A stretch of DNA of 64,000 nucleotides from the NCBI GenBank assembly GCA_963674745.2, contig CAXXDV010000003.1, positions 2,016,001 to 2,080,000 on the forward strand. Direction: 5' to 3'. Numbering within the stretch: the first letter of the stretch is position 1; the number at the start of each line of letters is the position of its first letter. The position numbers were made by a program, and so were the translations under genes. Source of the DNA: Desulfosudaceae bacterium (GTDB lineage Bacteria > Desulfobacterota > Desulfobacteria > Desulfobacterales > Desulfosudaceae). The notes beneath the pieces are model-generated. The model did not search any database. It saw nothing but the letters and a program-made list of their open reading frames with translations, and had not been told where the DNA came from. This document shows, piece after piece, positions 38,173-60,775 of this stretch.

Positions 38173-39443
38173 GATGTCACCTCTCCCTTTACCGAGCGCG
38201 CCACAAGCTCGGTGACGTCGAATATTTCCATCTGGACGCCCAGCGATTCCGCGGCGTCGCGCAAATTTCTTTCGCACCACGGGCAGCTTGTGGCCAAAGC
38301 ATCCGCCCCGGTAGCCAGGGCTTCCTCGATTCGCTCCCTGGCTGCGAAATCGGACAGTTCCTCATCTGCTTCCCACACCCCGCCTCCGGCGCCGCAGCAC
38401 CAGGAATACTCCCTGATACGTTCCATCTCCACCAGTTCAATGCCGGGAATGGATCGAAGAAGCTCGCGAGGGGCGTCATAAACCCCTTTTCTTCCGTCGC
38501 GTTTGCACGAGGCCGGCCTCAGAAGCTTGTTTCCTTCCCAGGGCCCCGCATAGGGCTCGCTTCGCCGGCCGAGATGGCAGGGGTCGTGATAGGTGATCTT
38601 TCTTTTCACCGTGTTTTTGAATTGCACTTTTCTGTTTGCCGCAAGTTCACCCAGATACTCGCTGATGTGCATGATCCGGACACCCAGGTCTACGCCCATG
38701 CGCGGATAGGCATACTTGAAAGCGCCATAGCAGTCGGCACAGGGCGTGAGCAGGACTTTAGCGCCGGAAGACTTTACCCGGACGGCCATGTCCTCGGCGA
38801 AATTTTTGCCATCCCCCCGAAAGCCCAGACCAAAGGCGCGGCCCCCGCAGCATGACTCGGCTTTGCCCGCAACCCCCAGATCAACGCCCGCATCCCGGAC
38901 GAGCGTTGCCGCCCCCCGGATGACGCCTAGAAGGTCCTCGTCATAAGAAAACCGGCACCCGGCGTGAAACAAGACATCCACCTTTTGAGCGTTGGCGTCC
39001 TTCAGGTCGAGCCCCTCAGCCCAATCACCGCGGGCTTTTTTGGGTTCCCCGAAGACATTGTTCTCCCGTTTCAGGTCATCGATCATCATCTGGTGCTCGG
39101 CGAAAAACTGGCCGTTTTCCACGCACGTCGCCCGGATCTCCTCGATCACTTCGGCAATGTCGATGTCGTCGCGGTAAACTTTGCAGTTGGCGTCGCAGGC
39201 GCCGCAAAGCGTGCACTTGTAAACCACGTTTGCGACGGAATCGTTCATCTCTATTCTTCCGTCCAGCAGCGAAAGCCCCAGCATGAGCTTGCCGCTGCCT
39301 GCGAAACTGTGAAAATTGTAGCGGGATATGGACGGGCAGACCTGGGCGAACCGGTGGCTCTTTATCTGGCTCATCGGCACCCATTTGCATGAGGAGCACC
39401 GCGAACAGCCCTCCATGTCCCTGCGATATTCTTCCAATGCCAT
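38169..39443 (-). CDS. Fe-S oxidoreductase with 2x[4Fe-4S] and two CCG domains (HdrD/GlpC/GlcF-like)
   Basis: CSRCSSC, CTLCGACDANC, SCCGG, PCADC, YHDPCHLGR, WCCGAGGG, SCPWC. Confidence 0.88.
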   Translation of the reverse strand: MALEEYRRDMEGCSRCSSCKWVPMSQIKSHRFAQVCPSISRYNFHSFAGSGKLMLGLSLLDGRIEMNDSVANVVYKCTLCGACDANCKVYRDDIDIAEVIEEIRATCVENGQFFAEHQMMIDDLKRENNVFGEPKKARGDWAEGLDLKDANAQKVDVLFHAGCRFSYDEDLLGVIRGAATLVRDAGVDLGVAGKAESCCGGRAFGLGFRGDGKNFAEDMAVRVKSSGAKVLLTPCADCYGAFKYAYPRMGVDLGVRIMHISEYLGELAANRKVQFKNTVKRKITYHDPCHLGRRSEPYAGPWEGNKLLRPASCKRDGRKGVYDAPRELLRSIPGIELVEMERIREYSWCCGAGGGVWEADEELSDFAARERIEEALATGADALATSCPWCERNLRDAAESLGVQMEIFDVTELVARSVKGEVTS

Positions 39444-39453
39444 AATATACCTC

Positions 39454-45383: not shown

Positions 45384-45574
45384 AATTCATCTCCCACAAA
45401 TGCTGCATGGCGTTGCAAAATATTGCATACATGTTGCGCAACAGGTGAAGTCACTGCAATATCATAAAATATTTTCGATTATCGTAACCGAAATGTTGCA
45501 TATGGGCAACACATATCCTAAGAAAACAGACCTGCTTCATCCCTTAACGCCTGAACCCCGCGCTATTTCGGCGC

Positions 45575-45589
45575 TGGCACGATCCATGC
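45575..45589 (+). promoter_or_regulatory. Sigma54 -24/-12 promoter of the hdr operon
   Basis: TGGCAC-GATCC-ATGC (GG-N10-GC); upstream TGTTGC...GCAACA palindromes at about 45442-45453 and 45494-45511 are candidate activator sites. Confidence 0.75.
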
Positions 45590-45607
45590 GTATACAAAAA
45601 GTCCATT

Positions 45608-46045
45608 ATGGAGAACTCACCAAACATACTGATCCTTTCCGAGGCCATGGAGCTTCGATTTTTTCTTGAGACAGTGCTGACAGAAGCGCATTACCGTACG
45701 ACCAGCGCAGTAAATATGGAGGAAGCACTGGAGCAGGTTGTCCGGGACACGCCGGCAATGGTTCTCATTGATGTGATGTCCAGCAAGCAGGGAATCTCCA
45801 TGTACAGGCAGCTCCGGCGACATGAAAAATATAAATTTATCCCGGTGATCATGCTTTCCTCGTTGGCAAGGGAAGCTTTTTTTCAGCTGCACAACATTGA
45901 ATACAGTCTTCCGAAAAAAGGGTTGCCCAAACCCGACGACTACCTGCCCAAACCCCCGGAAGCAGAAGAACTGATAGACGCGATTAAAAAAATATTCAAG
46001 GACAAGTCAACCCCTGGCAACAAAGGAAAAAGAACATGCAATTGA
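45608..46045 (+). CDS. Stand-alone, atypical response-regulator receiver protein
   Basis: VLIDVM phospho-Asp, IPVIMLSS and YLPKP retained; the beta1 acidic pair is SE instead of DD. Confidence 0.78.
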   Translation: MENSPNILILSEAMELRFFLETVLTEAHYRTTSAVNMEEALEQVVRDTPAMVLIDVMSSKQGISMYRQLRRHEKYKFIPVIMLSSLAREAFFQLHNIEYSLPKKGLPKPDDYLPKPPEAEELIDAIKKIFKDKSTPGNKGKRTCN

Positions 46046-49000
46046 AGATCGGCTGTTATATCTGTCATTGCGGCATTAACATTGCCCATCGGGTGGATGT
46101 GGTGGAGGTGGCGAGGTTTGCAGGCACACTGGAAGGCGTTGTCATTGCCAGAGACTATAAATTCATGTGCTCTGATCCCGGCCAGGAAATGATCGAGGCA
46201 GATATTCATGAATTCGGACTGAACCGTGTAGTGGTGGCGTCCTGCTCTCCCAGACTCCATGAAAAAACCTTCCAGAGTGCTTGCAAGCGGGCCGGCATCA
46301 ACCCTTATCTTTTCCAGATGGCATCAATCCGGGAACAGGTTTCATGGGTGACGCTGGACGATGAAGAAGCGACGCGCAAAGCGAAAACCCTGGTTGCCGG
46401 TGCGGTCAACCGGGTCAAGGCCCATAACAGTCTTGAAACCCGGCATGTCAATGTCCATCCGGACATCATGGTCGTCGGCGGGGGCATTGCCGGCATGCAG
46501 GCGGCCCTGGATATCGGCAACAGCGGACATACCACCTACCTGGTGGAAAAATCCACGACCATCGGCGGCCACATGCTTCAATTCGATAAAACATTTCCAA
46601 CCCTGGACTGTGCGGCCTGCATCGGTACGCCGAAAATGGTGGAAGTGGCCCAGAATGCAAATATCGAGCTGCTTTCCTATTCGGAAGTAACCGGCGTTTC
46701 CGGCTACATCGGCAATTATGAGGTAACCATCCGGAGACGGCCACGGTATATCAAAGAAGATCTGTGCACCGGATGCGGAGAATGTACAAAAGCCTGTCCG
46801 GTCAGCTTTCCAAGTGAATGGGACGAATGCCTCCAGGACCGGAAAGCCATTTACAGGGCGTTTCCGCAGGCAGTCCCCATTACGTACTGTATCGACAAAC
46901 TTGATCCGGCTCCCTGCGTGCAGACCTGCCCGGCCCATGCGAATGTCCAGGGGTATATCCAGCTCATAAAAAAAGGTGAATACGAAAAAGCGGTCCGCCT
47001 GATCATGGAACGGATTCCATTACCCGGTGTTCTGGGGCGGGTCTGCCCGCATCCCTGTGAATCAGCCTGTCGCAGGGGCGATCTGGACACACCTCTTGCC
47101 ATCCGGGATTTGAAACGGTTCGCCGCAGACCAGGTGGACATGGAAACACTGGCAGTCCCTGAAATATCAGAACTGGGCAGAAAAATCGCTGTGATCGGCT
47201 CCGGGCCGGCCGGTTTGACAGCCGCCTATGATCTGCGGTTGAAAGGCTATGATGTTACCATTTTTGAAGCAGCCGGTCTTCCCGGCGGCATGCTGCGCAG
47301 CGGCATACCCGATTACCGCCTGCCGCAGGAAATACTGGATAAAGAGATCGGTTATATCCAGCGAATGGGCATTCGGATTGAAACCGGAAAAGCCCTGGGA
47401 AAACACGTCTTGACAGAACAGCTGAAATCTGACGGATTCGAGGCGGTTTTTCTCGGGATCGGTGCTCAGGGCGGCATGGCTCTGGATATTCAAGGTGAAA
47501 ACAGTCCCGGTGTAACAGATGCGATTCATTTTCTCCGGCAGGTCAGTCTCGGGAGCAGAGAGACGCCTGGCCGTATGGTAGCCATAATCGGTGGCGGTAA
47601 TGTGGCTGTTGATGCCGCCCGGACAGCCATTCGCCTGGGCGCGGAAGAAGTCATTCTGGCTTATCGTCGAACACGGGAGGAAATGCCGGCTTATGAGGAC
47701 GAAATCGAAGGCGCCCTGGCAGAGGGCGTGATATTGAGGCCGCTGGTGACACCTCTTGAGATCATTAAAAAAGACGGTCGCTGTGCGGGAATCCGGTGTG
47801 TGGAAAACCGCCTTGGTGACCCGGATGAAAGCGGCCGAAGGCGGCCGGAGCCTGTTGAAGGATCAGAATTCATACTGGCCTGTGACAGTGTAATCACTGC
47901 CATCGGTCAGGCCATTCTGCTGCCTGAAGATGCCACATTAAAAGAAATCGGTTTTGACCGCCGCAACCGCATCCGGGTCAATCCTGATACGCTCCAAACC
48001 GACATTGAATGGCTTTTTGCAGGCGGAGACATGGTCAGCGGACCCGCAACCGTTGTAGGAGCAGTATCCGGAGGACACCGGGCTGCCCATGCCATCCATC
48101 ATTATCTCTCAGGAAAGGATATGACGGAACTGCAGGGCTTCTTTGAATCTACAAAATCGATTGAAGAGAGTAACTATAAAGAGATACCGGCAAATGCAGC
48201 AATCTTAGAGCGGCAGGAATTAACCCACAGGGATGCCGGAAAACGGAAACACGATTTCAATGAAGAAACTGTCGGGTTTGATGCCGAGGGGGCAAAAGCC
48301 GAAGCTGAGCGTTGCCTGAACTGTCAGGGATGTTGTGAATGTATGGAATGTGTCCGGGCCTGTGAAGCAAAGGCCATTGATCATCTTATGAAACCTGAAG
48401 AAAAGACAGTCAAAGTCGGTTCCATTATCCTGACCACAGGCTATGATGTTCTGGACCCCACTGCCATGAAGCAATTTGGTTACGGCACTTTCCCCAATGT
48501 CTATACCAGTCTTGAATTTGAACGCCTTTCCAATGCCACCGGACCCACGGGCGGAGAAATCCTGATCCGGGACGACACCGGCGCTTTTGCCAGGGAGCCT
48601 AAAAGTGTGGCGCTACTGCACTGTATCGGCAGTCGGGATGCGAACTACCATGAATACTGTTCCCGTGTCTGCTGCATGTATGCGTTAAAATATTCCCACC
48701 TGATAAAGGAAAAAGTCGGGCATGACGCGGAGGTGTATGATTTTTACATTGATATGCGTTGCTTCGGAAAGGGATATGAAGAATTTTACCGCCGGTGCCA
48801 GGAAGAAGGCACCCATTTTATCCGCGGCAAGGCATCAGAAATTACGGACCAGGCGGAATCACCGGAAGAGGAAGGAAAGCTTGTGGTGATCGGTGAAGAT
48901 ACGCTTCTCTCCAGCCTGGTCCGCATTCCTGTGGATATGGTGGTGCTCTGTGTGGCCATGCAGGCCAGGGATGATGCCAGAGATGTCGGTCGAATTTTTG

Positions 49001-49455
49001 GTGTAAACCAGGGTTCGGACGGTTTTTTCCTTGAAGAACATCCCAAGCTGGGTCCGTTGAACACAGCGACGGACGGCGTTTTTATCGCCGGCGCCTGCCA
49101 GTCGCCGAAAGATGTCCCGGATACGGTGGCCCAGGCCTCTGGCGCCGCTGCAAAAGCCCTGTCGCTGGCATCCAGGGGCCAGGTCCAGGTATCATCAACC
49201 ATCTCCTGGATTGATCCGGATATCTGTGCCGGTTGTCAGATCTGCAGGCCTTTATGCCCGTATTCCGCTATTGAATTTGACGAACGCCGCAGGGTGTCCG
49301 TCGTCAATGAAGCCATCTGTAAAGGCTGTGGTTCATGCGCCGGGGCATGCCCGTCGGGCGCAGCCCAGGTCCGGCATTTTACGAAAAAACAAATGTTTTT
49401 AGAGTTTGAAGGTATTATGGCTGCCCTGAATAAGGTCCAGGCGCCGGCACAATAA
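46036..49455 (+). CDS. hdrA: HdrA-like subunit with an inserted GltD/NAD(P)H-binding flavin module (HdrL-type)
   Basis: ICHCGINI, VVASCSP, GGGIAG, DKTFPTLDCAAC, LEFER, YCSRVCCMYALK, YIDMRCFGK; insert GRVCPHPCE..C, GSGPAG, GGGNVAVDAAR, YRR. Confidence 0.9.
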   Translation: MQLKIGCYICHCGINIAHRVDVVEVARFAGTLEGVVIARDYKFMCSDPGQEMIEADIHEFGLNRVVVASCSPRLHEKTFQSACKRAGINPYLFQMASIREQVSWVTLDDEEATRKAKTLVAGAVNRVKAHNSLETRHVNVHPDIMVVGGGIAGMQAALDIGNSGHTTYLVEKSTTIGGHMLQFDKTFPTLDCAACIGTPKMVEVAQNANIELLSYSEVTGVSGYIGNYEVTIRRRPRYIKEDLCTGCGECTKACPVSFPSEWDECLQDRKAIYRAFPQAVPITYCIDKLDPAPCVQTCPAHANVQGYIQLIKKGEYEKAVRLIMERIPLPGVLGRVCPHPCESACRRGDLDTPLAIRDLKRFAADQVDMETLAVPEISELGRKIAVIGSGPAGLTAAYDLRLKGYDVTIFEAAGLPGGMLRSGIPDYRLPQEILDKEIGYIQRMGIRIETGKALGKHVLTEQLKSDGFEAVFLGIGAQGGMALDIQGENSPGVTDAIHFLRQVSLGSRETPGRMVAIIGGGNVAVDAARTAIRLGAEEVILAYRRTREEMPAYEDEIEGALAEGVILRPLVTPLEIIKKDGRCAGIRCVENRLGDPDESGRRRPEPVEGSEFILACDSVITAIGQAILLPEDATLKEIGFDRRNRIRVNPDTLQTDIEWLFAGGDMVSGPATVVGAVSGGHRAAHAIHHYLSGKDMTELQGFFESTKSIEESNYKEIPANAAILERQELTHRDAGKRKHDFNEETVGFDAEGAKAEAERCLNCQGCCECMECVRACEAKAIDHLMKPEEKTVKVGSIILTTGYDVLDPTAMKQFGYGTFPNVYTSLEFERLSNATGPTGGEILIRDDTGAFAREPKSVALLHCIGSRDANYHEYCSRVCCMYALKYSHLIKEKVGHDAEVYDFYIDMRCFGKGYEEFYRRCQEEGTHFIRGKASEITDQAESPEEEGKLVVIGEDTLLSSLVRIPVDMVVLCVAMQARDDARDVGRIFGVNQGSDGFFLEEHPKLGPLNTATDGVFIAGACQSPKDVPDTVAQASGAAAKALSLASRGQVQVSSTISWIDPDICAGCQICRPLCPYSAIEFDERRRVSVVNEAICKGCGSCAGACPSGAAQVRHFTKKQMFLEFEGIMAALNKVQAPAQ

Positions 49456-49481
49456 CTTTTTGAGACAAGAGAGGACGTTTT

Positions 49482-49904
49482 ATGAGTGAATTCAATCCCC
49501 TGATTATCGCTTTTGTCTGCAACTGGTGTACCTATACAGCTGCAGATCTGGCCGGTACATCCCGCCTGAATTATCCGGACAACATCCGACTGATGCGTGT
49601 GATGTGTACCGGCATGGTGGACCCACAATATGTCATTAAGGCTTTTCTGGAAGGCGCGGACATGGTTTTGGTCAGTGGTTGCCATCCGGGCGATTGCCAC
49701 TATATCAACGGCAATTACAAGGCACGGCGCCGGATAAAACTGCTTCAGGAGATCCTGCCCGTGCTCGGTATTGAAAAAGAACGACTGAAACTGACCTGGA
49801 TCGGGGCCAGTGACGGCATCCAATTCGCACGTACCATGGAAGAACTGGTGGTTCAGGCAAAAAATCTGGGGCCCGGCCCGGGACGGCAGCAAATTGCCGT
49901 CTGA
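49482..49904 (+). CDS. mvhD: MvhD/FlxD-type [2Fe-2S] subunit
   Basis: FVCNWCTYTAADLAG, RVMCTG, GCHPGDCHY. Confidence 0.92.
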   Translation: MSEFNPLIIAFVCNWCTYTAADLAGTSRLNYPDNIRLMRVMCTGMVDPQYVIKAFLEGADMVLVSGCHPGDCHYINGNYKARRRIKLLQEILPVLGIEKERLKLTWIGASDGIQFARTMEELVVQAKNLGPGPGRQQIAV

Positions 49905-49919
49905 TCAGGAGGAAAACAA

Positions 49920-51059
49920 ATGGCATTGACAACCCGTATTACAGTTGAAAATAAAGATTTTCTGGCGGCTGCAAGGCATTTTTTGATCGATGTACTGAAT
50001 TCTGACAGTATTGATGCGATAGTGGTTCCGCTGGTTTCGGAAGGCGGCCATTCCATCATGCCGGAACTGGTAACGGTTCCTTCCCGGCTGGAACAGGCGG
50101 ATCCTTTGAGCCCTTGTTTCCCGATGAATTCTGCACGTCTGATTTCAAGGCTGACCCGCAAACCAGGGAACAGAAAAATTGCGGCCGTACTCAGGCCGTG
50201 TGAAATCCGGGCACTGGTAGAACTGGTTAAACTCAAACAGGCCCGACTGGACGACCTGATCGTGATCAGTATGGACTGCCTGGGGGCCTATTCCAACAAA
50301 GACTGGACCCTCATCAGCGCATCCGGGCCGGATAATTTTACCCGGACTTTTTATGAAAAACAACTTTCCGGCAGGCTTTCGGAGGAAGGCGAACCGGAAA
50401 TAACTTCAGCCTGCAGGGCCTGTGAATATCCGGTATCTGACCAGGCAGACATCACCTTTGATTTCCTGGGTACAGAGATTACCCGGGAATTTCATATTAC
50501 AGGAAAAAGCGATGCCGGAGAGGCCCTGATCCGTGACCTGGGTTTTGAAACATCAGAACTGCCAAAAGACAGGGGGGCCCGGATAGCGGATCTCACTGCC
50601 AGGCGCCTGGCATTCCGGGATGACATGTTTGCCAGAACCCGTGAGGCGGTTGCGCCCCTGGACAAGCTGTCTGTTTATTTTGAACGATGCGTGAACTGCT
50701 ATAACTGCCGGGTGGCCTGTCCGGTCTGCTATTGCAGAGAGTGTGTTTTCAACACGGACGTGTTTGACCACGATCCGTTTCAGTACATGGAAAAAGCCCA
50801 TCGCAGCGGCAGTCTCCGTCTGCCTTCGGACACGCTCTTTTTCCACATCACCCGGATGGCGCACATGAGCCTGTCCTGTGTGGGCTGCGGACAGTGTTCC
50901 AATGCCTGCCCCAATGACATCCCGGTGATGGAGGTTTTTCGTCTGGCAGCATCCGCAGCCCAGGACGGTTTTGGCTATATCCCGGGGATAAAAAAAGATG
51001 ACGCCCCGCCCCTGTCGGAATTTAAGGAAAACGAATTTGAAGAGGTTGTCGGCATTTAA
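49920..51059 (+). CDS. FdhB/FrhB-like Fe-S subunit
   Basis: RPCEIRAL.EL.K..Q, MDCLG, ACRAC, CVNCYNCRVACPVCYCREC, CVGCGQCSNACP. Confidence 0.8.
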   Translation: MALTTRITVENKDFLAAARHFLIDVLNSDSIDAIVVPLVSEGGHSIMPELVTVPSRLEQADPLSPCFPMNSARLISRLTRKPGNRKIAAVLRPCEIRALVELVKLKQARLDDLIVISMDCLGAYSNKDWTLISASGPDNFTRTFYEKQLSGRLSEEGEPEITSACRACEYPVSDQADITFDFLGTEITREFHITGKSDAGEALIRDLGFETSELPKDRGARIADLTARRLAFRDDMFARTREAVAPLDKLSVYFERCVNCYNCRVACPVCYCRECVFNTDVFDHDPFQYMEKAHRSGSLRLPSDTLFFHITRMAHMSLSCVGCGQCSNACPNDIPVMEVFRLAASAAQDGFGYIPGIKKDDAPPLSEFKENEFEEVVGI

Positions 51060-51082
51060 CAAAATGATAAAAGGAAAAAAAC

Positions 51083-54000
51083 ATGAAGCCTGATCCCATG
51101 GATAATGAGCACAGCAACGCCCTGGTCGTCGGCGCAGGAATTTCCGGTATCCGCACTGCTCTGGATCTGGCCCAGCAGGGATACAGGGTGACGTTGATCG
51201 ACAGTAATCCGGCAACAGGCGGTCTGCTTAACCAGCTGGATTATCAGTTTCCCACTAATCACTGCGGCATGTGCAGGCTGCTGCCCCTGGTTCACCGGGA
51301 CCAGTCTTCCCAGCACTGCCTGCGCAAAGGTATTTTTCACGAAAACATCGACCTGCACTTATCCTGTGAGCTGCAGGATCTGTCCGGTGAGCCGGGAAAT
51401 TTTACGGCCCGGATAAAAGAAAAGCCGACCTGGGTGGATCCTGATCGATGCGTGGGATGTGGCCTTTGTGAACAGGTCTGCCCGGAAGAAATCCCGGACT
51501 GTTTCAACGAGGGGCTTTCCCGTAGAAAGGCGATTCATTTGCCCGTTCCCCATGCCATTCCAAATGCGTATGTTGTGGACCTGGCATTTTGCAGTCGTTG
51601 CGGCGCCTGTGAAGCGGTCTGTCCCACTGATGCGATTCAGCTGTCGGATGTCAACCGGAAGGCTTTTTCCATTCTGGTGGTGGATGATGAACTGAGCATC
51701 CGGGATTCCCTCAAAGAATGGCTGGAAGAAGAAGGTTTCAGCGTCGACATGGCCGATTCGGGCAAGGCGGCGCTTTCCGCGCTGGAAGAAAAAGAGTATC
51801 GTCTTATGCTGACCGACATCAAGATGCCGGAAATGGACGGCGTCGAGCTCTTGGCAAAGGCAAAAGAACTCCAGTCCGAGCTGAACGTGGTCATGATGAC
51901 AGCCTATGCTACCGTTGAGACGGCCATCGAAACCATGAAAACCGGCGCCCGGGATTACCTGATCAAACCGTTTGACCCGGAGACCCTGATACCCATGGTG
52001 GTCCGTATTTTTCAGGATGTCGAAGCATCAAAAGACCGGGTATTGTCAGTGGATACAGTTATCTTTGCCTGCGGTACCACTTTCTACAATCCCGCGGATA
52101 ACAAAAATGTTTATGGTTACGGGATTTATCCCAATGTACTCACCCACATCGAGTTTGAACGTATGCTCAGTCCGGCCGGCCCGAGTCCGGAAGGACTGCT
52201 GCGACGGGACAACAACAAGCCTGTAAAAAAAATTGCCTGGATTCAATGTGTCGGCTCAAGGGACATACAGAACGGGGCTGATTACTGCTCAGGCATCTGC
52301 TGTATGATTGCGGTAAAGGAGGCCATGCTGGCCAGACAGATGTCAGGCGGTCAAATTGAACCCGTTATTTTTTATATGGATATGCGGGCCTGGGGCAAGC
52401 CTTTTCAGTCTTATCTTGACGAAGCTGCGGAATCGGATCAAATCCGATTTGTCCGCTGCAAAGTTCACTCTTTAAGCGAGGATTCCGAGACCCGAGACCT
52501 TGTGCTGCGTTACATGGACCGGCCAGGACACGCCGTCTTTGAAAACTTTGATATGGTCGTTCTTTCCACAGGAATGCGGCCCGGTCCGGATATGGCGCGG
52601 CTGGCGGAAATCACAGGTGTCGGACTGAATCCCTGGGGATTTTTTGATCACCTTCCGTTTGAGCCTGCCAGGACCGGCCAGGACGGCATTTTTGTCTCCG
52701 GTTCCACCACGGAACTCCGGGACATCAGCGAGTCGATGATCACGGCCTCTGCTGCTGCTGCCAATGCTTCCGGAATTATCCGGAAGCAAGATGCCGGGCA
52801 AAAAATGCCGGCACTTCCCGTCTTACCTGAAAAGGATACAAGCCGGGAGCCCGTGCGGATTCTTCCGGTGATCTGCACCTGCAACGGACGCCTGGAGGCA
52901 GCGGTGACAAAAAAAGATATCGAGCAGGTTTTTGATTTCGACCCGGACCTTGACGATCCCGTTTTTATTGACCGGCTCTGCATGGCCCAGGGATGGCAGG
53001 AAATGAAAGACCACCTGGCAGACAGTGCCTGCAACCGGATGTTGATCGCCGCATGCCATCCTTATGTGTTTACGCCCGGAATCCGGAGGCTGAGGGATGA
53101 TCCCGGGGTTGATCCGGCCATGGTTCATGCCGTGGATACCATGACCCCTCTTTTCTCAACAAAACCGGAGAAAGCAGAAGAAAAAACATTACATTTATCC
53201 CGGATCGCCGCTGGCCTGCGCCAGGGAGCGGCCTTTCTGAAGCATGCCGAGCCCGCATCTCGCACTGAAACAGCCATGTGTCAGCGGGTACTGGTGATCG
53301 GGGGGGGGATCGCCGGCATGACGGCCGCCCTGGCTATTGCCGGTCAGGGCTTTGAGGTGGACCTGGTAGAAAAAGAAGAACAGTTTGGCGGCAATCTGAA
53401 CTGGCTTTCTTCCACCCTTGAGGGGCATGACGTCAAGGCCCTTCTCGAGGACACACTGTCCCGTCTAGGCAAAGCACCCGCCCTTTCACTTTATCCCGGT
53501 GCCCGGTTGGTGAATGTAACCGGAACCGCCGGTCATTTCCGGACGGTCCTCGAAGACGACCAGCAAAAAGGGGTGTCCCTGACACACGGCGCCGTCATCA
53601 TTGCCACCGGCGGCCGGGAATCAGATACCTGCGCCTTTTTGCATGGTGAAAATGACCGGGTGATCACCCAGAAAGCGCTGGAGGGAAAACTGTCTGAGGA
53701 AGGGGCCGATATTCCGGGTACAGTCGTGATGATTTTATGCGTTGACTCCAGGGTTCCGTCTGCGAACTACTGTTCCCAGGTCTGCTGCCCGACAGCGATA
53801 AAACAGGCGAGAGAAATCAAACGGCGCAGCCCGGACACAGAAATTTTTATTTTCTACCGGGATATGATGACCTGCGGTTTTTCAGAGACTTATTTCACCC
53901 ATGCCAGAAATGAAGGCATTATTTTCATCCCCTATTCACTGGACAAGCTTCCGGAAGTAAAAGCCATAGAGGACGGTATTCAGGTCTGCGGGAACGATCC

Positions 54001-54532
54001 CATCCTGGATCAGTCTCTTGAAATTTCAGCCGATCTTCTAATCCTTGCCACTGGAATTACACCGGAGTTGCCTGAAGATCTTGCAGAGATGCTTGGTATC
54101 GTCCGTGATAAAAACGGTTTTTTTAATGAAGCGGACCCCAAATGGCGTCCTTTGGACAGTCTCACCGAAGGCATTTTTGCCTGCGGTATTGTCCAGGCAC
54201 CCCGATCAGTGGAAAAGAGCATTGGAACGGCTCAGGCCGCAGCGCAGCGGGCCATGAGCATTATCAGCCAGCCCCGTTACCGGATGGACAGGACCACAGC
54301 ATCCGTCCGGCATGCAATCTGCAGCCGCTGTGAAGCCTGCATCCCGGTTTGCCCTTACAACGCACGAACACTGAACACAGAAGAAGACAGGATTCAGGTC
54401 AATGCATTGGCCTGCCAGGGATGCGGGGCCTGTGCAGCAGCCTGTCCCAATGGAGCGGCTATCCTTGAAGGCTTTTCCAGCCGTCAGATGCTGGATGGTA
54501 TTGACGCAGTCTTTTATCCGCTGCCGAATTAA
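51083..54532 (+). CDS. hdrA: Tandem (two-FAD-module) HdrA-like subunit with an internal response-regulator receiver domain
   Basis: GAGISG and GGGIAG FAD motifs; FPTNHCGMC; inserted ferredoxin; REC at about 51668-52016; YCSGICC and YCSQVCC clusters; C-terminal 2x[4Fe-4S]. Confidence 0.9.
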   Translation: MKPDPMDNEHSNALVVGAGISGIRTALDLAQQGYRVTLIDSNPATGGLLNQLDYQFPTNHCGMCRLLPLVHRDQSSQHCLRKGIFHENIDLHLSCELQDLSGEPGNFTARIKEKPTWVDPDRCVGCGLCEQVCPEEIPDCFNEGLSRRKAIHLPVPHAIPNAYVVDLAFCSRCGACEAVCPTDAIQLSDVNRKAFSILVVDDELSIRDSLKEWLEEEGFSVDMADSGKAALSALEEKEYRLMLTDIKMPEMDGVELLAKAKELQSELNVVMMTAYATVETAIETMKTGARDYLIKPFDPETLIPMVVRIFQDVEASKDRVLSVDTVIFACGTTFYNPADNKNVYGYGIYPNVLTHIEFERMLSPAGPSPEGLLRRDNNKPVKKIAWIQCVGSRDIQNGADYCSGICCMIAVKEAMLARQMSGGQIEPVIFYMDMRAWGKPFQSYLDEAAESDQIRFVRCKVHSLSEDSETRDLVLRYMDRPGHAVFENFDMVVLSTGMRPGPDMARLAEITGVGLNPWGFFDHLPFEPARTGQDGIFVSGSTTELRDISESMITASAAAANASGIIRKQDAGQKMPALPVLPEKDTSREPVRILPVICTCNGRLEAAVTKKDIEQVFDFDPDLDDPVFIDRLCMAQGWQEMKDHLADSACNRMLIAACHPYVFTPGIRRLRDDPGVDPAMVHAVDTMTPLFSTKPEKAEEKTLHLSRIAAGLRQGAAFLKHAEPASRTETAMCQRVLVIGGGIAGMTAALAIAGQGFEVDLVEKEEQFGGNLNWLSSTLEGHDVKALLEDTLSRLGKAPALSLYPGARLVNVTGTAGHFRTVLEDDQQKGVSLTHGAVIIATGGRESDTCAFLHGENDRVITQKALEGKLSEEGADIPGTVVMILCVDSRVPSANYCSQVCCPTAIKQAREIKRRSPDTEIFIFYRDMMTCGFSETYFTHARNEGIIFIPYSLDKLPEVKAIEDGIQVCGNDPILDQSLEISADLLILATGITPELPEDLAEMLGIVRDKNGFFNEADPKWRPLDSLTEGIFACGIVQAPRSVEKSIGTAQAAAQRAMSIISQPRYRMDRTTASVRHAICSRCEACIPVCPYNARTLNTEEDRIQVNALACQGCGACAAACPNGAAILEGFSSRQMLDGIDAVFYPLPN

Positions 54533-54544
54533 GAATCAAAAAAA

Positions 54545-55141
54545 GTGCCACGGAGCATGACTATGAAAAAAAAAGAAAATATCGTCCCGGAACGAGCAAA
54601 ACATCTTTTGGCAGCTGTGAGGGAAATGGTTCAGCCCTGCATCCAGTGCGGAACCTGTACCGGTTCATGCCCCAACGCTTTTGCCATGACACATACACCC
54701 AGAGCGCTGTGGCACATGGTGATAGAAGGTCAGGACGCTGAAGTATTGTCCAGCAAGACCTTTATTCTCTGCTCCTCCTGTTACTCATGCACCCTCCGCT
54801 GCCCCCGAGGGCTGCCGTTGACAAATGCCATGTCCCTGCTGACCCAGGCGGCCAGAGATGAAAATCAGCCCTGGTTTGTCAAAAGCCAGGCTTTTTATAC
54901 GGCATTTCTGGACAGTGTCCGCCGTCGAAAGCGCGTAAATGAGACTGAATTTATGTCTCTCTTCTTCTGGAAAATGAAAAATCCGATCCTTTCTCTGCAA
55001 TTTGCTTCCCTGGGCCTGAAACTGATGAAGAAACGCAAAATCAGTCTTCCGGTGTTTTTCCCGGGACAGGAAACAGGGCTTGAAAAAATTTTTGAAAAAA
55101 CCCGGCAGGTGGAAGCCGGACAAATGGAGAAAAAGGCATGA
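54545..55141 (+). CDS. hdrC: Heterodisulfide reductase subunit C-like
   Basis: CIQCGTCTGSCP and CSSCYSCTLRCPRG. Confidence 0.88.
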   Translation: MPRSMTMKKKENIVPERAKHLLAAVREMVQPCIQCGTCTGSCPNAFAMTHTPRALWHMVIEGQDAEVLSSKTFILCSSCYSCTLRCPRGLPLTNAMSLLTQAARDENQPWFVKSQAFYTAFLDSVRRRKRVNETEFMSLFFWKMKNPILSLQFASLGLKLMKKRKISLPVFFPGQETGLEKIFEKTRQVEAGQMEKKA

Positions 55142-56055
55142 AATATCTTTATTATCCCGGATGTTCCCTGGAGGGTACGGCTCTGGAATACAACCGCTCG
55201 ACCTGTTCCCTCATGGCGGCCCTGGGAGTGGAACTGGTGGAGATTGATGACTGGTCCTGCTGCGGGGCCAGTGCGGCCACAACGATATCTGAACTGCTTT
55301 CCCTTGTACTACCGGCCCGAAATCTGGCGCTGGCAGAAAGGATGTGCGAAGAAACCGGTGAAAAGCTGGATATTTTAGTACCCTGTTCGGCCTGCTATCT
55401 AAATTTAAAAAAAGTATCTGAACAGGCAGCGGCAAACCCTGCGTTGCTGGATCAGCTGAACTCGATTCTGGCAGAAGATGGACTGAAACTCGAGAATCAC
55501 TTGAATGTCCGTCACCTGCTCGATGTGCTCAGCAAAGACTTAGATCCGGACCATCTGGCCGCAAGCGTCATATCTCCGCTGTTCGGGGTATCAGCCGCAC
55601 CATATTACGGGTGTCAGTGCCTGAGGCCCTACCCTGTTTTTGATGATCCGGAGAAACCCGAATCAATGGATGCCCTGATCCGGGCCTGTGGTGCAACGCC
55701 CTATGCCTGGGCCATGGGAGGGGTCTGCTGCGGCGCATCACATATGAATACAAAACCGGAAGTCGGAAAAACGTTGGTTGGACGTATCCTGAGCCGGGCC
55801 GGAAATGCCGACGTCATCCTGACGGTCTGTCCAATGTGCCAGATGAACCTTGAAGGATATCAGAAAAAAACCGGCCATGCCTGTCATAAGGAATTCAATA
55901 CCACGATTCTGTATCTTCCACAATTTATCGGAATCGCGCTGGGCCTCTCAGAAGAACAGGTCCGCACGGATTTAAACCTTTCAATCACAGCCGATTTCAA
56001 AAAAAAGATAGAAAATTTGACACGCACGTCCTTAACTCAGGCGTCTTCAGGATAG
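55138..56055 (+). CDS. hdrB: Heterodisulfide reductase subunit B-like
   Basis: YYPGCSL, WSCCGA, PCSAC; YYGCQ, CCGA, VCPMCQMNL (two CCG domains). Confidence 0.92.
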   Translation: MKYLYYPGCSLEGTALEYNRSTCSLMAALGVELVEIDDWSCCGASAATTISELLSLVLPARNLALAERMCEETGEKLDILVPCSACYLNLKKVSEQAAANPALLDQLNSILAEDGLKLENHLNVRHLLDVLSKDLDPDHLAASVISPLFGVSAAPYYGCQCLRPYPVFDDPEKPESMDALIRACGATPYAWAMGGVCCGASHMNTKPEVGKTLVGRILSRAGNADVILTVCPMCQMNLEGYQKKTGHACHKEFNTTILYLPQFIGIALGLSEEQVRTDLNLSITADFKKKIENLTRTSLTQASSG

Positions 56056-56078
56056 TCCAACAATATAAGGAGGGTATT

Positions 56079-57392
56079 ATGTTTAAAAAAATTCTTTTGG
56101 CGACTACGCCGGCAGACGAGTCAAAAGGGGCGGCAGATCTTGCTTTTGCCATGGCAAGGCCGAGCAGTTCAAAGCTTTACATCTTTCATGCCTATGGGCT
56201 TCCGGATCAGGGATGGGGCAACATGCGTTATCTTTTGCCGTCCGGCAAGGTAGACGAGGCCGAAAAAGAACTGGAAGCTTATTTTAAAGCAGACCTGGAA
56301 GCTGTGGAAAATTATGAAGTCAAAGTTGTTCCGGGCGTTCCTGAAATTGAGATTCTCAGGTATGCCAGAAAGCATAATGTGGATGTGATTGTCATGGGCC
56401 CGCACCGGGTGGAACAGAATCAGCCGCGTATCTGGGGAATGACGGGTTCCACCATACAGAAAGTCAGCCTCAAGGCCCGGTGTCCGGTGATGATCGTCCC
56501 ACCGGATATGCCGGAAATTTTTCGTCCGGAAGAAGTCCATCTTTCAAAGGAAGACCGTCTAAGTTACAATGTCCTTGTTGTCGACGACGAACTTTCAATG
56601 CGTGATTCTTTAAAAGAATGGCTGACCGAAGAAGGGTTTACCGCTGATATGGCGGAATCCGGGGAGCAGGCACTTGAAATGCTGTCTAAAAAAACATATC
56701 AGCTCATGCTGACAGACATCAAGATGCCGGGTATGGACGGGGTTACACTGCTGGAAAAGGCAAAGCAGTATTATCCCCGGCTTGCCGTGGTCATGATGAC
56801 GGCCTATGCCACCATTGATACTGCCCTGCGCGCGACAAAAAAAGGGGCACTGGATTACCTGGTCAAACCCTTTGATCCGGAACAGCTGATTCCGAAACTC
56901 CGGCAGTTTCATCAGGATTACGAACTCACCCGCGGACGGTTTAAAATTGCTTTTTCAAACATTGTTCTTGCAACAGACTTCAGCAAACCGGCATTTTGTG
57001 CATTTAATTTTGCATTGGATATCGCGCAGGTATATGACGCAACCCTGCATATTTTTCATGTCCTGCCGGATACTGATCATGAAAAAATTCTGCCCCAGGC
57101 TGAAGTAGAACGAAACATCCAGGAAGCCCTGTCAAAAATGGAACAGCGCTATGGCCCTGATCTTTCTGCAGTTGTTGATTATTCAATGGATTCCTGGGAA
57201 GGCGTTCCTCATGCAGAAATTTTGAAATTTGCCAGATGGAAATATGCCGATCTCATCATAATGGCCCATCATTCCAGGGAGCGGGATCCGGAAAGCGCTG
57301 TTCTTGGCTCCACAGTGATTAAAGTTGCCTCCAGTGCCCGGTGCCCGGTACTGAGCATTAACAGGGATTTCATTCCTCGCTGCTGTGCCTGA
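56079..57392 (+). CDS. Universal stress protein with a central receiver domain (USP-REC-USP)
   Basis: MFKKILLAT...DVIVMG...GST..KV...CPVMIV; REC at about 56565-56915; NIVLATDFS...DLIIMA...LGST..KV...CPVLSI. Confidence 0.88.
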   Translation: MFKKILLATTPADESKGAADLAFAMARPSSSKLYIFHAYGLPDQGWGNMRYLLPSGKVDEAEKELEAYFKADLEAVENYEVKVVPGVPEIEILRYARKHNVDVIVMGPHRVEQNQPRIWGMTGSTIQKVSLKARCPVMIVPPDMPEIFRPEEVHLSKEDRLSYNVLVVDDELSMRDSLKEWLTEEGFTADMAESGEQALEMLSKKTYQLMLTDIKMPGMDGVTLLEKAKQYYPRLAVVMMTAYATIDTALRATKKGALDYLVKPFDPEQLIPKLRQFHQDYELTRGRFKIAFSNIVLATDFSKPAFCAFNFALDIAQVYDATLHIFHVLPDTDHEKILPQAEVERNIQEALSKMEQRYGPDLSAVVDYSMDSWEGVPHAEILKFARWKYADLIIMAHHSRERDPESAVLGSTVIKVASSARCPVLSINRDFIPRCCA

Positions 57393-57403
57393 TAACGGAG
57401 TTC

Positions 57404-58957
57404 ATGATGAATGAAGATAAAACGGAATGGAAAATCGTATTAATCGATGATGAACCCGATATCAGGGAGGTGATCCAGATCGTCCTGACGGACTGGGGAT
57501 ATACTGTTTTTACGGCTGATAACGGGTTGTCCGGCCTGGCATTGTGCCGGAAAATCTCTCCCCAGGTGGTGATCACCGATGTAAAAATGCCTGGTATGGG
57601 AGGTCTCCAGGTACTGGCACGCCTGAAAGAAGTGCAACCAAGAATTGAAGTCATCGTGATGACGGCTTTCGGGGATATCGAAACCGCCATCGAGGCGATT
57701 CAGCTGAATGCATCTGATTTTATCACAAAGCCGGTCAATGACCAGGCATTGGAACTGGCCATTGATCGGGCGAAACAGCGATATACATCGGCCAGGCAGA
57801 TCAGGGAACACGCAAAGATGCTGGAAAACGGCTGGATGCAGGCCAACCGTGAGCTTGAGAAAAACTACCACTTCCAGGATAAAATTATCAATAATTCCAT
57901 CAGTGGGATTATTGCCAGCGGTCCGGATGGCCTGATTAAACTTTTTAATGCCAGTGCCGAAAAGATGACCGGCTTCAAAGCAGCTGAAATCCTGGGGACA
58001 AAAAAACTGGCTTCCCTTTTCGACGAAAACGATTTCAACGAGATCGAACTGGCTCTGGCTGATAATGGTCACGGTGGACCGAACCGGATCGATCTTATGG
58101 AATCAATGATCAAGGACGATAATGGTACACATATCCCTGTTCAGATTTCAGCCAGCCTTTTGTTCGACAACCAGAAACATGAAGGTACGCTGATCTGCCT
58201 GCGGGATCTCAGGGAATTGCGCCGGATCGAAAGGGAAATGGCGGACCAGGAGAAAATCCTGCACCAGGACAAAATGATGTCTCTTGGAAGACTGGCCGCG
58301 TCTGTGGTTCATGAAATCAACAACCCCCTGTCCGGAATTTTGAATTATCTGCGGCTTATGGAAAAAATGACCCGGAAGCCCCTGGATGAAACAAAACTTG
58401 AAAAATTTTCCGGGTACCTGGAAATTGCGTCCAAAGAAACGGCCCGCTGTTCTTCTATCATTTCAAATCTTCTGATTTTTTCCAGAAAATCATCAATCAG
58501 TTATGAAGCCGTGAACGTGACAGATCTTCTGGAGCGGACGGCTCTGCTCATCCGCCACAAACTCGAACTGTCCAACGTATCCCTCTTACTCGAGCGTCCC
58601 GCCGACATTCCTGACTTAAAAGCGGATGCCAACCAGATTCAGCAATGTCTGATCAATCTTATTTTTAATGCCCTGGATGCAACACCGGAAGGGGGCACCA
58701 TCACCATCAGTGCGGATCACCCTTCAGGTACCAACCAAATCAATATATCCATCGCCGACTCCGGCAGCGGCATCCCTGAAAAAGACCTGCCATATATTTT
58801 TGATCCTTTTTTTACAACCAAAAAAGAAGGCCATGGTGTCGGGCTGGGGCTTTCAACCGTTTACGGCATCATGGAACGCCATGGCGGGGCCGTCCGGGTA
58901 GCAGAGACCGGTCCTTCCGGCACCCGCTTTATTTTGGAATTCAACTCCCTGGCTTAA
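57404..58957 (+). CDS. Cytoplasmic hybrid histidine kinase (REC-PAS-HisKA-HATPase)
   Basis: LIDDE/TDVKMP/KP receiver; FNASAEKMTG PAS; HEINNPL; NALDA, DSGSG, DPFFTTK, GLGL. Confidence 0.92.
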   Translation: MMNEDKTEWKIVLIDDEPDIREVIQIVLTDWGYTVFTADNGLSGLALCRKISPQVVITDVKMPGMGGLQVLARLKEVQPRIEVIVMTAFGDIETAIEAIQLNASDFITKPVNDQALELAIDRAKQRYTSARQIREHAKMLENGWMQANRELEKNYHFQDKIINNSISGIIASGPDGLIKLFNASAEKMTGFKAAEILGTKKLASLFDENDFNEIELALADNGHGGPNRIDLMESMIKDDNGTHIPVQISASLLFDNQKHEGTLICLRDLRELRRIEREMADQEKILHQDKMMSLGRLAASVVHEINNPLSGILNYLRLMEKMTRKPLDETKLEKFSGYLEIASKETARCSSIISNLLIFSRKSSISYEAVNVTDLLERTALLIRHKLELSNVSLLLERPADIPDLKADANQIQQCLINLIFNALDATPEGGTITISADHPSGTNQINISIADSGSGIPEKDLPYIFDPFFTTKKEGHGVGLGLSTVYGIMERHGGAVRVAETGPSGTRFILEFNSLA

Positions 58958-58972
58958 AAAAAGACAAGGTAC

Positions 58973-60775
58973 GTGGTTTCTCTCAGCAATTTTAAAAAAA
59001 GCATTGCCTGTAAATTGATCCTCGCAGCAGGGCTGACGGTCCTGATAACAGTTTTTATCGGCGCGCTCCTCTTCATCCAATATGAAGAAACAAAGACGCT
59101 GATTTCTTTTGCCGTATTCATTTTTTTGATCTGTTCTTCAATTATTGCGATTTTCGTCATGCGTTTTGTGAACCGCCCGATTAAACAATTAATCTGGGAA
59201 ACCCGCCGGATTAATCAGAAGGCCCATGGCCGGATAGAAGGCTTCCGGGGCGGAGAGATCAAGCAGCTTGCAGAAGCGATCAATGAGATGGCTGAACAAA
59301 TGGATCTCAAGCAGAAAATATTGAATGAACAGCGCCAGGAATATCAGAATCTGTTTGAGGCAGTGCCCTGTCTGATTACAGTTCAGAACCGAAATTTTGA
59401 ACTTCTGCAGTACAACCGAAAATTCAAGGAACGCTTCCATCCAGATAAAGGGGCGCTTTGCTACCAGGCATATAAGAACCGCTCCAGTCCATGCCAGAAT
59501 TGTCCTATGGTTGAAACGTTCAAAGACGGTAAATCCCACCATGGTGAACAAAGCAGCATGACCCGGTCCGGGAAAACTTCCTACTGGACGTTGCGAACAG
59601 CCCCGATCAAGGACGCCGACGGCAACGTCACCGCTGTGATGGAAATATCCGTCGATATCACAAAAATGCGTCTGCTGGAAAATGAAGTCCGGAGATCTGA
59701 AGAAAAATACAGGGCCATTTTTGATAATACACCTAATCCACTGTTTGTTTTGGAAAGAGAAACACTGAAAATTCTGGACTGCAATGCAAGTGCGCATCAG
59801 ATATACGCGTATACGAAAAAAGAGATGCTTTCCCTGCAATTCGGAGATTTTTTTGACCCTGAATTTGAGCCGGAAGCCACGGCAGCTATCCGGGCATGTA
59901 GAACGCTCACAAGGGTCCGTCATCTTGGTAAAAACGGAAAAATTATTTTTGTCGACATCAGTGTTGCACCATCACAATACCAGGCATCCCGGGTGCTCCT
60001 GGCCAATGCCACCGATGTGACGGAACGGCTAACGGCAGAACAGCAGCTGATTCAGACCAGCAAAATGGCAACCCTCGGAGAGATGGCAACGGGTATTGCC
60101 CATGAATTGAACCAGCCCCTCACCGTGATCAAGACCGCGGCCGGCTTCATTCTGCGCAAAGCCCAGAAAAAGGAACCTATTGACGACGAAATCATGTCCA
60201 CCATGGCTGAAAAGATTGACGGACAGGTGAACCGGGCATCTAAAATCATCAATCACATGCGAGAATTCGGTCGAAAATCTGATGTGGTCAAAAAAACAGC
60301 CGATGTCAACCGGGCTCTGAACAATGCGTTTGATATTTTCCGTCAGCAGCTGAAACTGCACCAGATCGATGTGATCCGGCGCCTGACGCCTGATCTGCCT
60401 TTGGTTTTGGCTGATGAAAACCGTCTGGAACAGGTTTTTATCAATATCCTGATCAATGCCAGAGATGCCATTGATTCAAAATCTGTATTGGAAGAGGAGC
60501 AAGCCGATTCCATGGAATTAAAGCAGATCTACCTGACCACAAAAAGATCAGGCGGCGGGGTGGTTGTTGAAATAGAAGATACAGGCACCGGCATTCCAGA
60601 AGCGATTACAAACAAAATCTTTGACCCTTTTTTCACGACAAAACAGGCCGGTAAGGGAACCGGTCTCGGCTTGTCCATCTCTTATGGTATCATCAAGGAT
60701 TATGATGGACATATAAGCGTTCAAAAGGGAAAGTTCAACGGCGCATTATTCATCATCAAGCTTCCCTGCGCATGA
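58973..60775 (+). CDS. Membrane histidine kinase (2TM-HAMP-PAS-PAS-HisKA-HATPase)
   Basis: Two adjacent TM segments with almost no periplasmic loop; HAMP; HELNQPL; NARDA, DTGTG, DPFFTTK, GTGLGL. Confidence 0.92.
   Translation: MVSLSNFKKSIACKLILAAGLTVLITVFIGALLFIQYEETKTLISFAVFIFLICSSIIAIFVMRFVNRPIKQLIWETRRINQKAHGRIEGFRGGEIKQLAEAINEMAEQMDLKQKILNEQRQEYQNLFEAVPCLITVQNRNFELLQYNRKFKERFHPDKGALCYQAYKNRSSPCQNCPMVETFKDGKSHHGEQSSMTRSGKTSYWTLRTAPIKDADGNVTAVMEISVDITKMRLLENEVRRSEEKYRAIFDNTPNPLFVLERETLKILDCNASAHQIYAYTKKEMLSLQFGDFFDPEFEPEATAAIRACRTLTRVRHLGKNGKIIFVDISVAPSQYQASRVLLANATDVTERLTAEQQLIQTSKMATLGEMATGIAHELNQPLTVIKTAAGFILRKAQKKEPIDDEIMSTMAEKIDGQVNRASKIINHMREFGRKSDVVKKTADVNRALNNAFDIFRQQLKLHQIDVIRRLTPDLPLVLADENRLEQVFINILINARDAIDSKSVLEEEQADSMELKQIYLTTKRSGGGVVVEIEDTGTGIPEAITNKIFDPFFTTKQAGKGTGLGLSISYGIIKDYDGHISVQKGKFNGALFIIKLPCA

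Follow-up and report, generated by a model that had tools for sequence, protein, structure and literature searches.

The DNA analysed here (the window) is a 64,000-nt stretch of contig CAXXDV010000003.1 from a Desulfosudaceae bacterium, positions 2,016,001 to 2,080,000 of assembly GCA_963674745.2. At 51083..54532 (+) it carries a single open reading frame of 1149 aa that, on the combined evidence of Pfam, phmmer searches of the Protein Data Bank (PDB), an AlphaFold2 model and Foldseek, encodes a fused double HdrA-like flavoprotein with an inserted response-regulator receiver domain (REC). The gene is part of an operon (45608-60775) that also encodes partners of the heterodisulfide reductase (Hdr) type, further receivers and two histidine kinases. 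The original prediction, made from the letters of the window, was that an intact receiver lies in frame inside an HdrA subunit at 51668-52016. Pfam places Response_reg (PF00072) at nt 51671-51997, within this interval, and the HdrA-type fold is likewise borne out; the host, however, proves to be two HdrA units fused in one chain rather than a simple HdrA. The genes of the operon and their domains all lie on the plus strand.

In half 1 of the protein, the N-terminal part of a thioredoxin reductase (TrxR)-like FAD domain (aa 1-115, 51083..51427), which bears the motif FPTNHCGMC with C61 and C64, leads into the sole inserted 2x[4Fe-4S] ferredoxin domain (aa 116-190, 51428..51652). This is followed by the receiver (aa 193-319, 51659..52039), delimited by Pfam, PDB alignment, the model and paralog alignment, and by the C-terminal part of the same TrxR-like domain (aa 320-565, 52040..52777), containing C389, C402, C406, C407 and K412. 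Half 2 comprises a region resembling the HdrA N-terminal domain (aa 591-700, 52853..53182; PDB alignment), another TrxR-like FAD domain, this one lacking an inserted ferredoxin (aa 731-1070, 53273..54292), and a C-terminal 2x[4Fe-4S] ferredoxin domain (aa 1071-1130, 54293..54472), the latter two identified by Pfam and alignment. The protein is read as a fused double HdrA because two HdrA copies map onto it: in the PDB sequence search against methanogen HdrA, query 11-187 aligns to HdrA 144/145-310 (FAD fold and inserted ferredoxin), query 321-501 to HdrA 319-498, query 592-745 to HdrA 5-155 (N-terminal domain and start of the second FAD fold) and query 970-1144 to HdrA 473-650, the C-terminal ferredoxin included. 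The best phmmer matches are 9sfi_A (E 1.3e-110) and 5odc_A (E 1.9e-108). HdrA chains also rank first in Foldseek (5odc_A, 7.6e-45) when queried with the AlphaFold2 model, which has a mean pLDDT of 87.5 and a pTM of 0.88 with the 117-sequence alignment described below. Pfam reports 4Fe-4S matches at aa 117-136 and 170-189, FAD/Pyr_redox matches at 15-46 and 735-863, and a further dicluster at 1080-1125.

Conservation was read from homologs retrieved with a junction-spanning query (aa 100-420) in a word-indexed search, where 8000 candidates were scored and 5563 matched at E ≤0.001. The best 120 of these 5563 matches all contain PF00072, 117 of them are 1129-1181 aa long, and their sources include metagenome-assembled genomes of Desulfobacterales and Desulfobacteraceae as well as an Olavius symbiont. 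From these 120, the alignment retains 117 sequences of 46-87% overall identity, after removal of P0008 and P0012 (labelled partial) and P0034 (1032 aa). C61 and C64 occur in 117/117, and all eight cysteines of the inserted ferredoxin together with C389, C402, C406 and C407 are invariant, as befits an HdrA-like fold. K412 beside the CC motif is invariant as well and is the putative equivalent of the flavin-N5 lysine of BamE and HdrA. The models of the strict HdrA/HdrA2 class are not reached (637.7 against 1100 for NF040770, 502.5 against 1400 for NF041778 and 494.3 against 1300 for NF041891), and the protein, HdrA-like by sequence, is not to be classed with the CoB-CoM reductases. NCBIfam contains no model for the architecture of tandem HdrA plus receiver, and the database names among the best 120 matches are 'response regulator', 'FAD-dependent oxidoreductase' and 'heterodisulfide reductase subunit A/A2'.

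The receiver fills the gap between HdrA 310 and 319 and hence lies in the return linker from the inserted ferredoxin to the FAD fold, a placement that confirms the predicted one and is supported by two receiver-less (REC-less) paralogs of the same genome, which delimit the insertion cleanly at aa 193-319. PF00072 covers aa 197-305 with an E-value of 5.1e-31 (107.6 bits against a cut-off of 30.2), and receivers in the PDB align to the domain at E 1e-14 to 1e-22, the nearest named ones by sequence being of the FixJ, AtoC, NtrC and ZraR types. All motifs quoted in the prediction are present as placed, namely VVDDE at 199-203, LTDIKMP at 243-249, MMTAY at 271-275 and IKPF at 294-297, flanked by CSRCGACEAVCP at 170-181 on the ferredoxin side and VDTVIFACG at 322-330 on the FAD side; the same holds for the codon of D245 (GAC, 51815..51817), the predicted phospho-acceptor. 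In the AlphaFold2 model, a check that the prediction had proposed, the domain is predicted to adopt the canonical (beta-alpha)5 receiver fold, with five strands (196-200, 220-224, 241-245, 268-273 and 291-294) alternating with five helices over 196-314 at block pLDDT values of 85-94. Helix alpha5 (299-314) is there followed, after two residues, by the FAD-domain strand 317-328.

The pocket is conserved without exception among the aligned homologs: D201, D202, E203, D245, K247, T273, A274, Y292, K295 and P296 are each found in 117/117, and P249 in 115/117. We take D201/D202 to be the acidic pair, D245 the phospho-acceptor, T273 the threonine, Y292 the aromatic switch and K295 the lysine of the CheY pocket. 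As judged from these residues, the phospho-chemistry of the receiver is intact and strictly conserved in the window protein and its aligned homologs, in agreement with the predicted phosphorylatable pocket. The receiver is moreover the best-conserved region of the protein, with a median identity to the query of 70.9% over the 117 homologs, compared to 65% for both the N-terminal FAD part and the inserted ferredoxin, 48-51% for the two FAD-fold bodies and 32% for the second N-terminal domain. A second family-specific element, a loop at aa 69-84 (51287..51334) directly after the FPTNHCGMC cysteine pair, is apparent from the alignments; its residues R72, D73, C79, R81 and G83 are invariant, and only receiver-bearing proteins have it, HdrA and the REC-less paralogs both lacking the loop in the PDB and paralog alignments. 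Its block pLDDT is 63-72, with residues 80-84 below 50. It may have evolved along with the receiver, as a surface for docking or as the carrier of a regulatory cysteine.

The same architecture is common within a single order of sulfate reducers and hence not specific to the window. With presence called by the same query at E ≤1e-60, 134/301 sampled genomes of the window's order match (106/221 of the high-quality genomes, 77/156 genera), nearly all of them continuously over query 2-320 and in open frames of ~1140-1200 aa. In a sample of the phylum, 11/401 genomes match, among them the window's own and three of the same order, leaving 7/~387 outside the order. When 1.84 billion cluster representatives were scanned exhaustively, 695 proteins matched at E ≤1e-30; among the best 36 of these, 15 span ferredoxin, receiver and FAD fold in a single alignment, and most matches below ~260 bits are either tandem HdrAs without a receiver or receivers of a generic kind. 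A contig scan with back-translated patterns, one of them inside the receiver, returned 80 loci, of which L001-L004 and L007 encode the full protein. Loci from other phyla (L005, L010, L019, L020, L022, L029, L059, L071 and L080) were rejected as candidates, their long match spans consisting of several generic receivers and no HdrA, and no independent case of a receiver inside HdrA outside the phylum is present in that 80-locus set. Within the window's own family, 0/7 other sampled genomes match, one of the same genus among them, and the ortholog of the kinase at 58973..60775 is likewise found in 0/7, whereas many other families of the order possess both. Lateral gain of the whole operon 45608-60775 in one piece, or its loss from the family relatives, may account for this.

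Besides a single receiver-bearing tandem HdrA, the genome that contains the window (5.55 Mb, 3 contigs) encodes four proteins of the same tandem scaffold that lack the receiver (C1:2462681-2465662, C1:2466576-2469527, C1:2492692-2497110 and C3:1862374-1865355), matching query 11-193 and then ~320-1144 at 35-43% identity. Two of the four adjoin each other. Three of them have an in-frame TGA in their N-terminal part, which probably encodes selenocysteine. As these four paralogs indicate that the scaffold works without a receiver, the latter is to be regarded as an added control element.

Upstream of the tandem HdrA gene, the operon encodes an HdrL-type HdrA with an inserted GltD/NfnB-like NAD(P)H module (46036..49455), an MvhD-type [2Fe-2S] adaptor (49482..49904; PF02662, 1.9e-51) and an FrhB/FdhB-like iron-sulfur protein (49920..51059; weak FrhB_FdhB_C match plus Fer4), and downstream of it an HdrC-like subunit (54545..55141) and an HdrB-like CCG-domain subunit (55138..56055). 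In a neighbourhood set of 20 loci of 20 kb from ~17 families of the order, selected for sufficiently long contigs, these genes are syntenic in 19/20, 20/20, 19/20, 18/20 and 18/20 loci, respectively. Next in the window follow a Usp-REC-Usp protein (56079..57392, receiver at nt 56571-56900), a REC-PAS-HisKA-HATPase hybrid kinase (57404..58957) and a membrane-anchored HAMP-PAS(4 Cys)-PAS-HisKA-HATPase kinase (58973..60775), the candidate cognate kinase. Orthologs of the HAMP-PAS-PAS kinase are present within ~9 kb in 17/20 loci, at 43-64% identity and at least 85% coverage, and in 3/5 loci outside the order, whereas the Usp-REC-Usp protein and the REC-PAS kinase each have a close ortholog in 1/20 loci only, that of the closest relative (L115). 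Of the two operon kinases from which the prediction proposed to test phosphotransfer, the HAMP-PAS-PAS kinase is therefore a conserved companion of the enzyme and the REC-PAS kinase is not. In most other loci the kinase, of ~760 aa, directly follows hdrB; in 8 loci an ORF of 382-398 aa comes after the kinase, which proved to be a REC-HATPase hybrid in all three scanned. No DNA-binding response regulator belongs to the conserved gene sets of the inspected loci.

The kinase and the enzyme are also associated at the level of whole genomes. In the order sample the kinase (E ≤1e-100) is present in 186/301 genomes, comprising 125/134 of those that bear the enzyme and 61/167 of those that do not, with neither gene in 106; the association is strong but not exclusive. 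In the first PAS domain of the kinase, C133, C163, C174 and C177 are invariant in 16/16 sequences, as is H377 of HisKA, and the four cysteines suggest that the protein is probably a redox or metal sensor. A sequence comparison of its PAS region with the PDB gave 0 matches at E ≤0.01. The window kinase measures 600 aa against ~760 aa in its orthologs, which have an extra N-terminal stretch of ~160 aa, and the lineage seems to have lost this N-terminal sensor segment.

Two other receivers of the operon offer a comparison with that of the enzyme. The Usp-REC-Usp receiver is 64% identical to the HdrA receiver (79/124, no gaps) and has a median identity of 62% to the 117 HdrA receivers, whereas the other operon receivers reach 24-35%; in a tree it is placed just outside the HdrA-receiver clade with weak support, and at supports of 0.55-0.68 the tree does not settle which of the two receiver groups descends from the other. 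In this lineage, two proteins of the operon that differ otherwise consequently each harbour an inserted receiver of one type, which suggests a shared kinase. The stand-alone receiver that opens the operon (45608..46045) has a non-canonical pocket, with S-E in place of D-D (SE-D-S-K overall). Its homologs in 11/20 loci share 22-52% identity and read VEDSK, EDDSR, DDGSK, DDNSS, DDNST, GDDSK, DDDSK, DDDAK, CDDSK, ENDSN or HDDSK. By its sequence, it looks like a rapidly evolving receiver or a pseudo-receiver, and as such it is an internal control for what relaxed constraint on the pocket looks like in sequence. Its end overlaps the start of hdrL by 10 nt.

Several further observations concern the region in front of the operon. 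The pre-operon intergenic region contains the palindromes TGTTGCGCAACA and TGTTGC-N6-GCAACA (45432-45443 and 45494-45511) and a sigma-54-like element, TGGCAC-N5-ATGC, at 45575-45590, 18 nt before the first ATG. Across the window the sigma-54 consensus shows no enrichment, with 24 matches where 36.7 are expected, and this site is only a hint. A divergent PAS/sigma-54 activator (43626-45383, minus strand) adjoins the intergenic region, a second sigma-54 activator is located at 41551-43614, and an HdrD-like protein with Fer4_8 and two CCG domains (38169-39497, minus strand) adjoins a FAD_binding_4 flavoprotein (39454-40932, minus strand), the two forming an Hdr-related redox pair.

In a minority of proteins the domain is retained with a changed pocket. 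At the six key positions, 13 of the 15 junction-bearing cluster representatives read DDDTYK, while P0138 reads DPLAVK and P0139 reads DPDGYH. In G340 (locus L140), the genomic member that diverges most, these positions read TPDAVK, with TP for DD, A for T and V for Y; its receiver is 29% identical to that of the window, compared to ~41% for the whole protein, and Pfam at E ≤1e-5 detects no receiver domain in it. At this locus a conventional 695-aa HdrA stands in for HdrL, the gene after hdrB encodes a Usp-Usp protein without a receiver (L140:11265-12227), and there is no ortholog of the HAMP-PAS-PAS kinase, the sole kinase being an unrelated PAS-PAS-kinase-REC hybrid on the opposite strand. 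In the four other out-of-order loci the pocket is intact, and three of these are the ones that have the kinase ortholog. Read from these sequences, the domain can outlast its pocket, and a pocket that is retained shows no variation at all.

Comparison to structurally characterized relatives places the receiver within an electron-transfer scaffold. The methanogen HdrA proteins (5ODC, 9SFI, 8RVU/8RVY, 7BKB), in which the inserted ferredoxin is the low-potential electron exit, share with the window protein the FAD fold, the inserted and C-terminal ferredoxins, the CxGSRD...C..CC cluster motif and the HdrB, HdrC and MvhD partners. The window protein differs from them as a tandem fusion with domains unequally split between its halves and in having the receiver and the extra loop with C79, and CoM-S-S-CoB is not established as its substrate. 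BamE of the class II benzoyl-CoA reductase (BCRII) from Geobacter metallireducens is described as a fused HdrA dimer in which the FAD of the N-terminal TrxR1 bifurcates and the other FAD probably has a structural role; electrons reach the low-potential acceptor via clusters E3, E5 and E6, two conformational states of the complex are reported, and BCRII is a dimer of protomers (bioRxiv 10.64898/2026.04.10.717634). By this description, the two systems have in common the fused HdrA dimer in a single chain and an MvhD-type adaptor with HdrBC-like partners, whereas BamE is without a receiver and has Gln768 at the non-bifurcating FAD, where half 2 of the window protein has K907 (at least 90% conserved). 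Furthermore, the window protein lacks selenocysteine, and neither BamBC (tungsten, AOR-type) nor BamGHI is encoded among the 14 genes scanned at 38169-63842, a genome-wide search not having been made.

Based on these analyses, we propose, at somewhat better than even confidence, that the enzyme operates as the terminal response regulator of the operon's own two-component system, with phosphorylation of D245 controlling the low-potential branch. The 1149-aa protein would constitute the flavoprotein core of a cytoplasmic Hdr-type complex of HdrL, MvhD, the FdhB-like protein, tandem HdrA, HdrC and HdrB; flavin-based electron bifurcation would be its candidate activity. By homology of the scaffold, it is the bifurcating half that appears to house the receiver, at the point where the low-potential arm hinges. 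The HAMP-PAS-PAS kinase would sense the redox or metal state via its four-cysteine first PAS domain and would be the likely phosphodonor of D245, maybe via or together with the REC-kinase hybrid. In the receiver, which in half 1 is set like a wedge separating the FAD domain from the inserted 2x[4Fe-4S] ferredoxin, phosphorylation of D245 would trigger a rearrangement of T273 and Y292 that is passed on via alpha5 into the FAD domain and via the short N-terminal linker into the ferredoxin domain. As the receiver is located between ferredoxin and FAD and its alpha5 is tied to a core strand, phosphorylation would then move the low-potential iron-sulfur arm, shifting its position or accessibility, and electron transfer to or from the low-potential partner would be switched on or off, or redirected, at the post-translational level.

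The suggestion in the original prediction that the enzyme is its own response regulator fits the conserved kinase and the lack of a conserved DNA-binding regulator, and is retained in that form. The interpretation is partly supported, in that structure, conservation and context all favour a phospho-switched enzyme. The insertion and its exact position, the intact phospho-chemistry and the conserved kinase neighbourhood are read from the data; the transfer of phosphate, the kinase responsible, the signal it receives and the response of the enzyme are all parts of the proposal, and what speaks for phosphorylation by a cognate histidine kinase is solely the association of the two proteins across loci and genomes. 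A number of observations weigh against the proposal. The HAMP-PAS-PAS kinase is missing nearby in 3/20 loci (L116, L117 and L119), 9 genomes have the enzyme without a kinase match, 61 have the kinase without the enzyme and many carry two copies of it, and the counts overstate the association since related genomes are not independent. In addition, the contrast between loss of the pocket and absence of the kinase comes from one locus, and the retention of the domain without its pocket in G340, P0138 and P0139 points to a phosphorylation-independent role, too.

Alternative explanations differ in whether the domain is real, whether it is phosphorylated and where the signal goes. An assembly artefact, i.e. 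a chimera built from reads of the two similar operon receivers, has practically no credence left. Already the prediction had judged a mix-up with the receiver at 56565-56915 unlikely, and a chimera is ruled out by the contiguous junction in the 134 genomes of the order, which refutes it on comparative grounds, and by the divergence of the two receiver-coding stretches, that of the enzyme being 65% identical to the second one (56559-56930; 242/372) with a longest shared run of 16 nt. Contigs from two public runs (X1 and X2) of one sample, possibly the source of the assembly, agree with this: two of 14,137 nt and 5,968 nt cover 51676-57500, including the junction from receiver to FAD fold, with zero differences, and one of 993 nt covers 50900-51698, from the ferredoxin to 31 nt into the receiver. 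The De Bruijn contigs of both runs do break at one place, a 37-nt word (51669-51705) with a depth of ~130 compared to 7-10 in its flanks, which indicates that the sample contains many other sequences with the same word. That the domain is a structural pseudo-receiver, a scaffold or partner-binding module never phosphorylated in the window protein, is improbable. The three proteins with degenerate pockets give this idea its footing, whereas the invariance of the phospho-chemistry residues in the window protein and all aligned homologs, the intact pocket of most junction-bearing representatives and the co-located kinase speak for phosphorylation, and the neighbouring stand-alone receiver illustrates how a pocket under relaxed constraint appears.

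Two further explanations accept phosphorylation but relocate its consequence. In one, which we consider rather unlikely, phosphorylation would drive receiver-receiver dimerisation through the alpha4-beta5-alpha5 face, as in NtrC or FixJ, and thereby build or dissolve a higher-order complex, of two tandem HdrAs or through docking of HdrL or MvhD, with the ferredoxin arm not being moved within the protomer. The receiver types nearest by sequence, the invariance of Y292 and T273 and the dimer of protomers formed by BCRII on the same scaffold are compatible with such a switch, and the present data do not separate it from intramolecular gating; the tandem fusion, however, already supplies the HdrA-HdrA' pair, and the short and rigid link from alpha5 to the following strand in the model suits intramolecular coupling at least equally well. 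Slightly more doubtful still is a reversal of the signal, where the enzyme would be the sensor and the redox state or conformation of the ferredoxin arm would set the rate at which the receiver gains or loses phosphate. Depending on its state, the protein would then take up or relay phosphate from the pair of kinase and REC-kinase hybrid, the true output being elsewhere. A hybrid REC-kinase in the conserved set, resembling a multi-step network, would be in line with this, as would the genomes in which the kinase family occurs without the enzyme and, in the window genome, a Usp-REC-Usp receiver of near-identical type that could compete for phosphate. On the other hand, no output regulator is conserved with the set, and a sink requires neither an exact structural hinge nor top conservation within a 1149-aa enzyme. 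Regulation of the low-potential branch through D245 hence remains the reading that we favour.

Receivers that control a catalytic domain of the same polypeptide, rather than DNA binding, are known from the CheB methylesterase and the PleD and WspR diguanylate cyclases, all with an N-terminal receiver and a signalling enzyme as output. In contrast, the receiver of the window protein is an internal insertion in a multi-cofactor redox enzyme of energy metabolism. In Desulfobacterium autotrophicum HRM2, locus VIII consists of hdrL/hdrA4, fdhB, hdrCB, a response regulator and a histidine kinase, a gene order that, as described, is the same as in the window; the colour key of its Fig. S3 (2009) lists 'response regulator receiver' among the Hdr Pfam domains, the protein carrying it being illegible, whereas the main text does not contain the word 'receiver' and offers no function or analysis (PMC2702500). 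A preprint on HdrA evolution distinguishes 11 domain architectures, and the words 'response' and 'receiver' are absent from it (10.1101/2024.09.26.615249). A full-text literature search, with a 2021 review of HdrA modules and a response-regulator census outside its scope, retrieved no description of a receiver inside HdrA. As far as searched, the receiver-bearing tandem HdrA is thus undescribed, as predicted, with the reservation that a receiver had been noted in the 2009 figure key. It extends two known kinds of protein, the response regulator with an enzyme as output and the tandem HdrA of BamE type.

In anaerobes, Hdr-type bifurcating complexes balance the pools of ferredoxin, NAD(P)H and thiols/disulfides against each other, and to our knowledge their control beyond transcription is largely unknown. 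A receiver in the flavoprotein, as found in nearly half of the sampled genomes of a globally important order of sulfate reducers, would allow control that is both direct and fast. On a more speculative level, and at clearly less than even confidence, a two-component system may here, for the first time, be seen to target a bifurcation-type enzyme directly: a redox-sensing kinase would phosphorylate the receiver at the hinge of the low-potential iron-sulfur arm and so gate or redirect the flow of electrons within seconds and without new expression. It may represent a widespread post-translational control layer of energy metabolism in marine sulfate reducers. Variants of D245, or the use of BeF3-, would offer a handle for trapping conformational states of this enzyme class, and two-component signalling would gain a class of output, a multi-cofactor redox enzyme controlled via an internal domain insertion.

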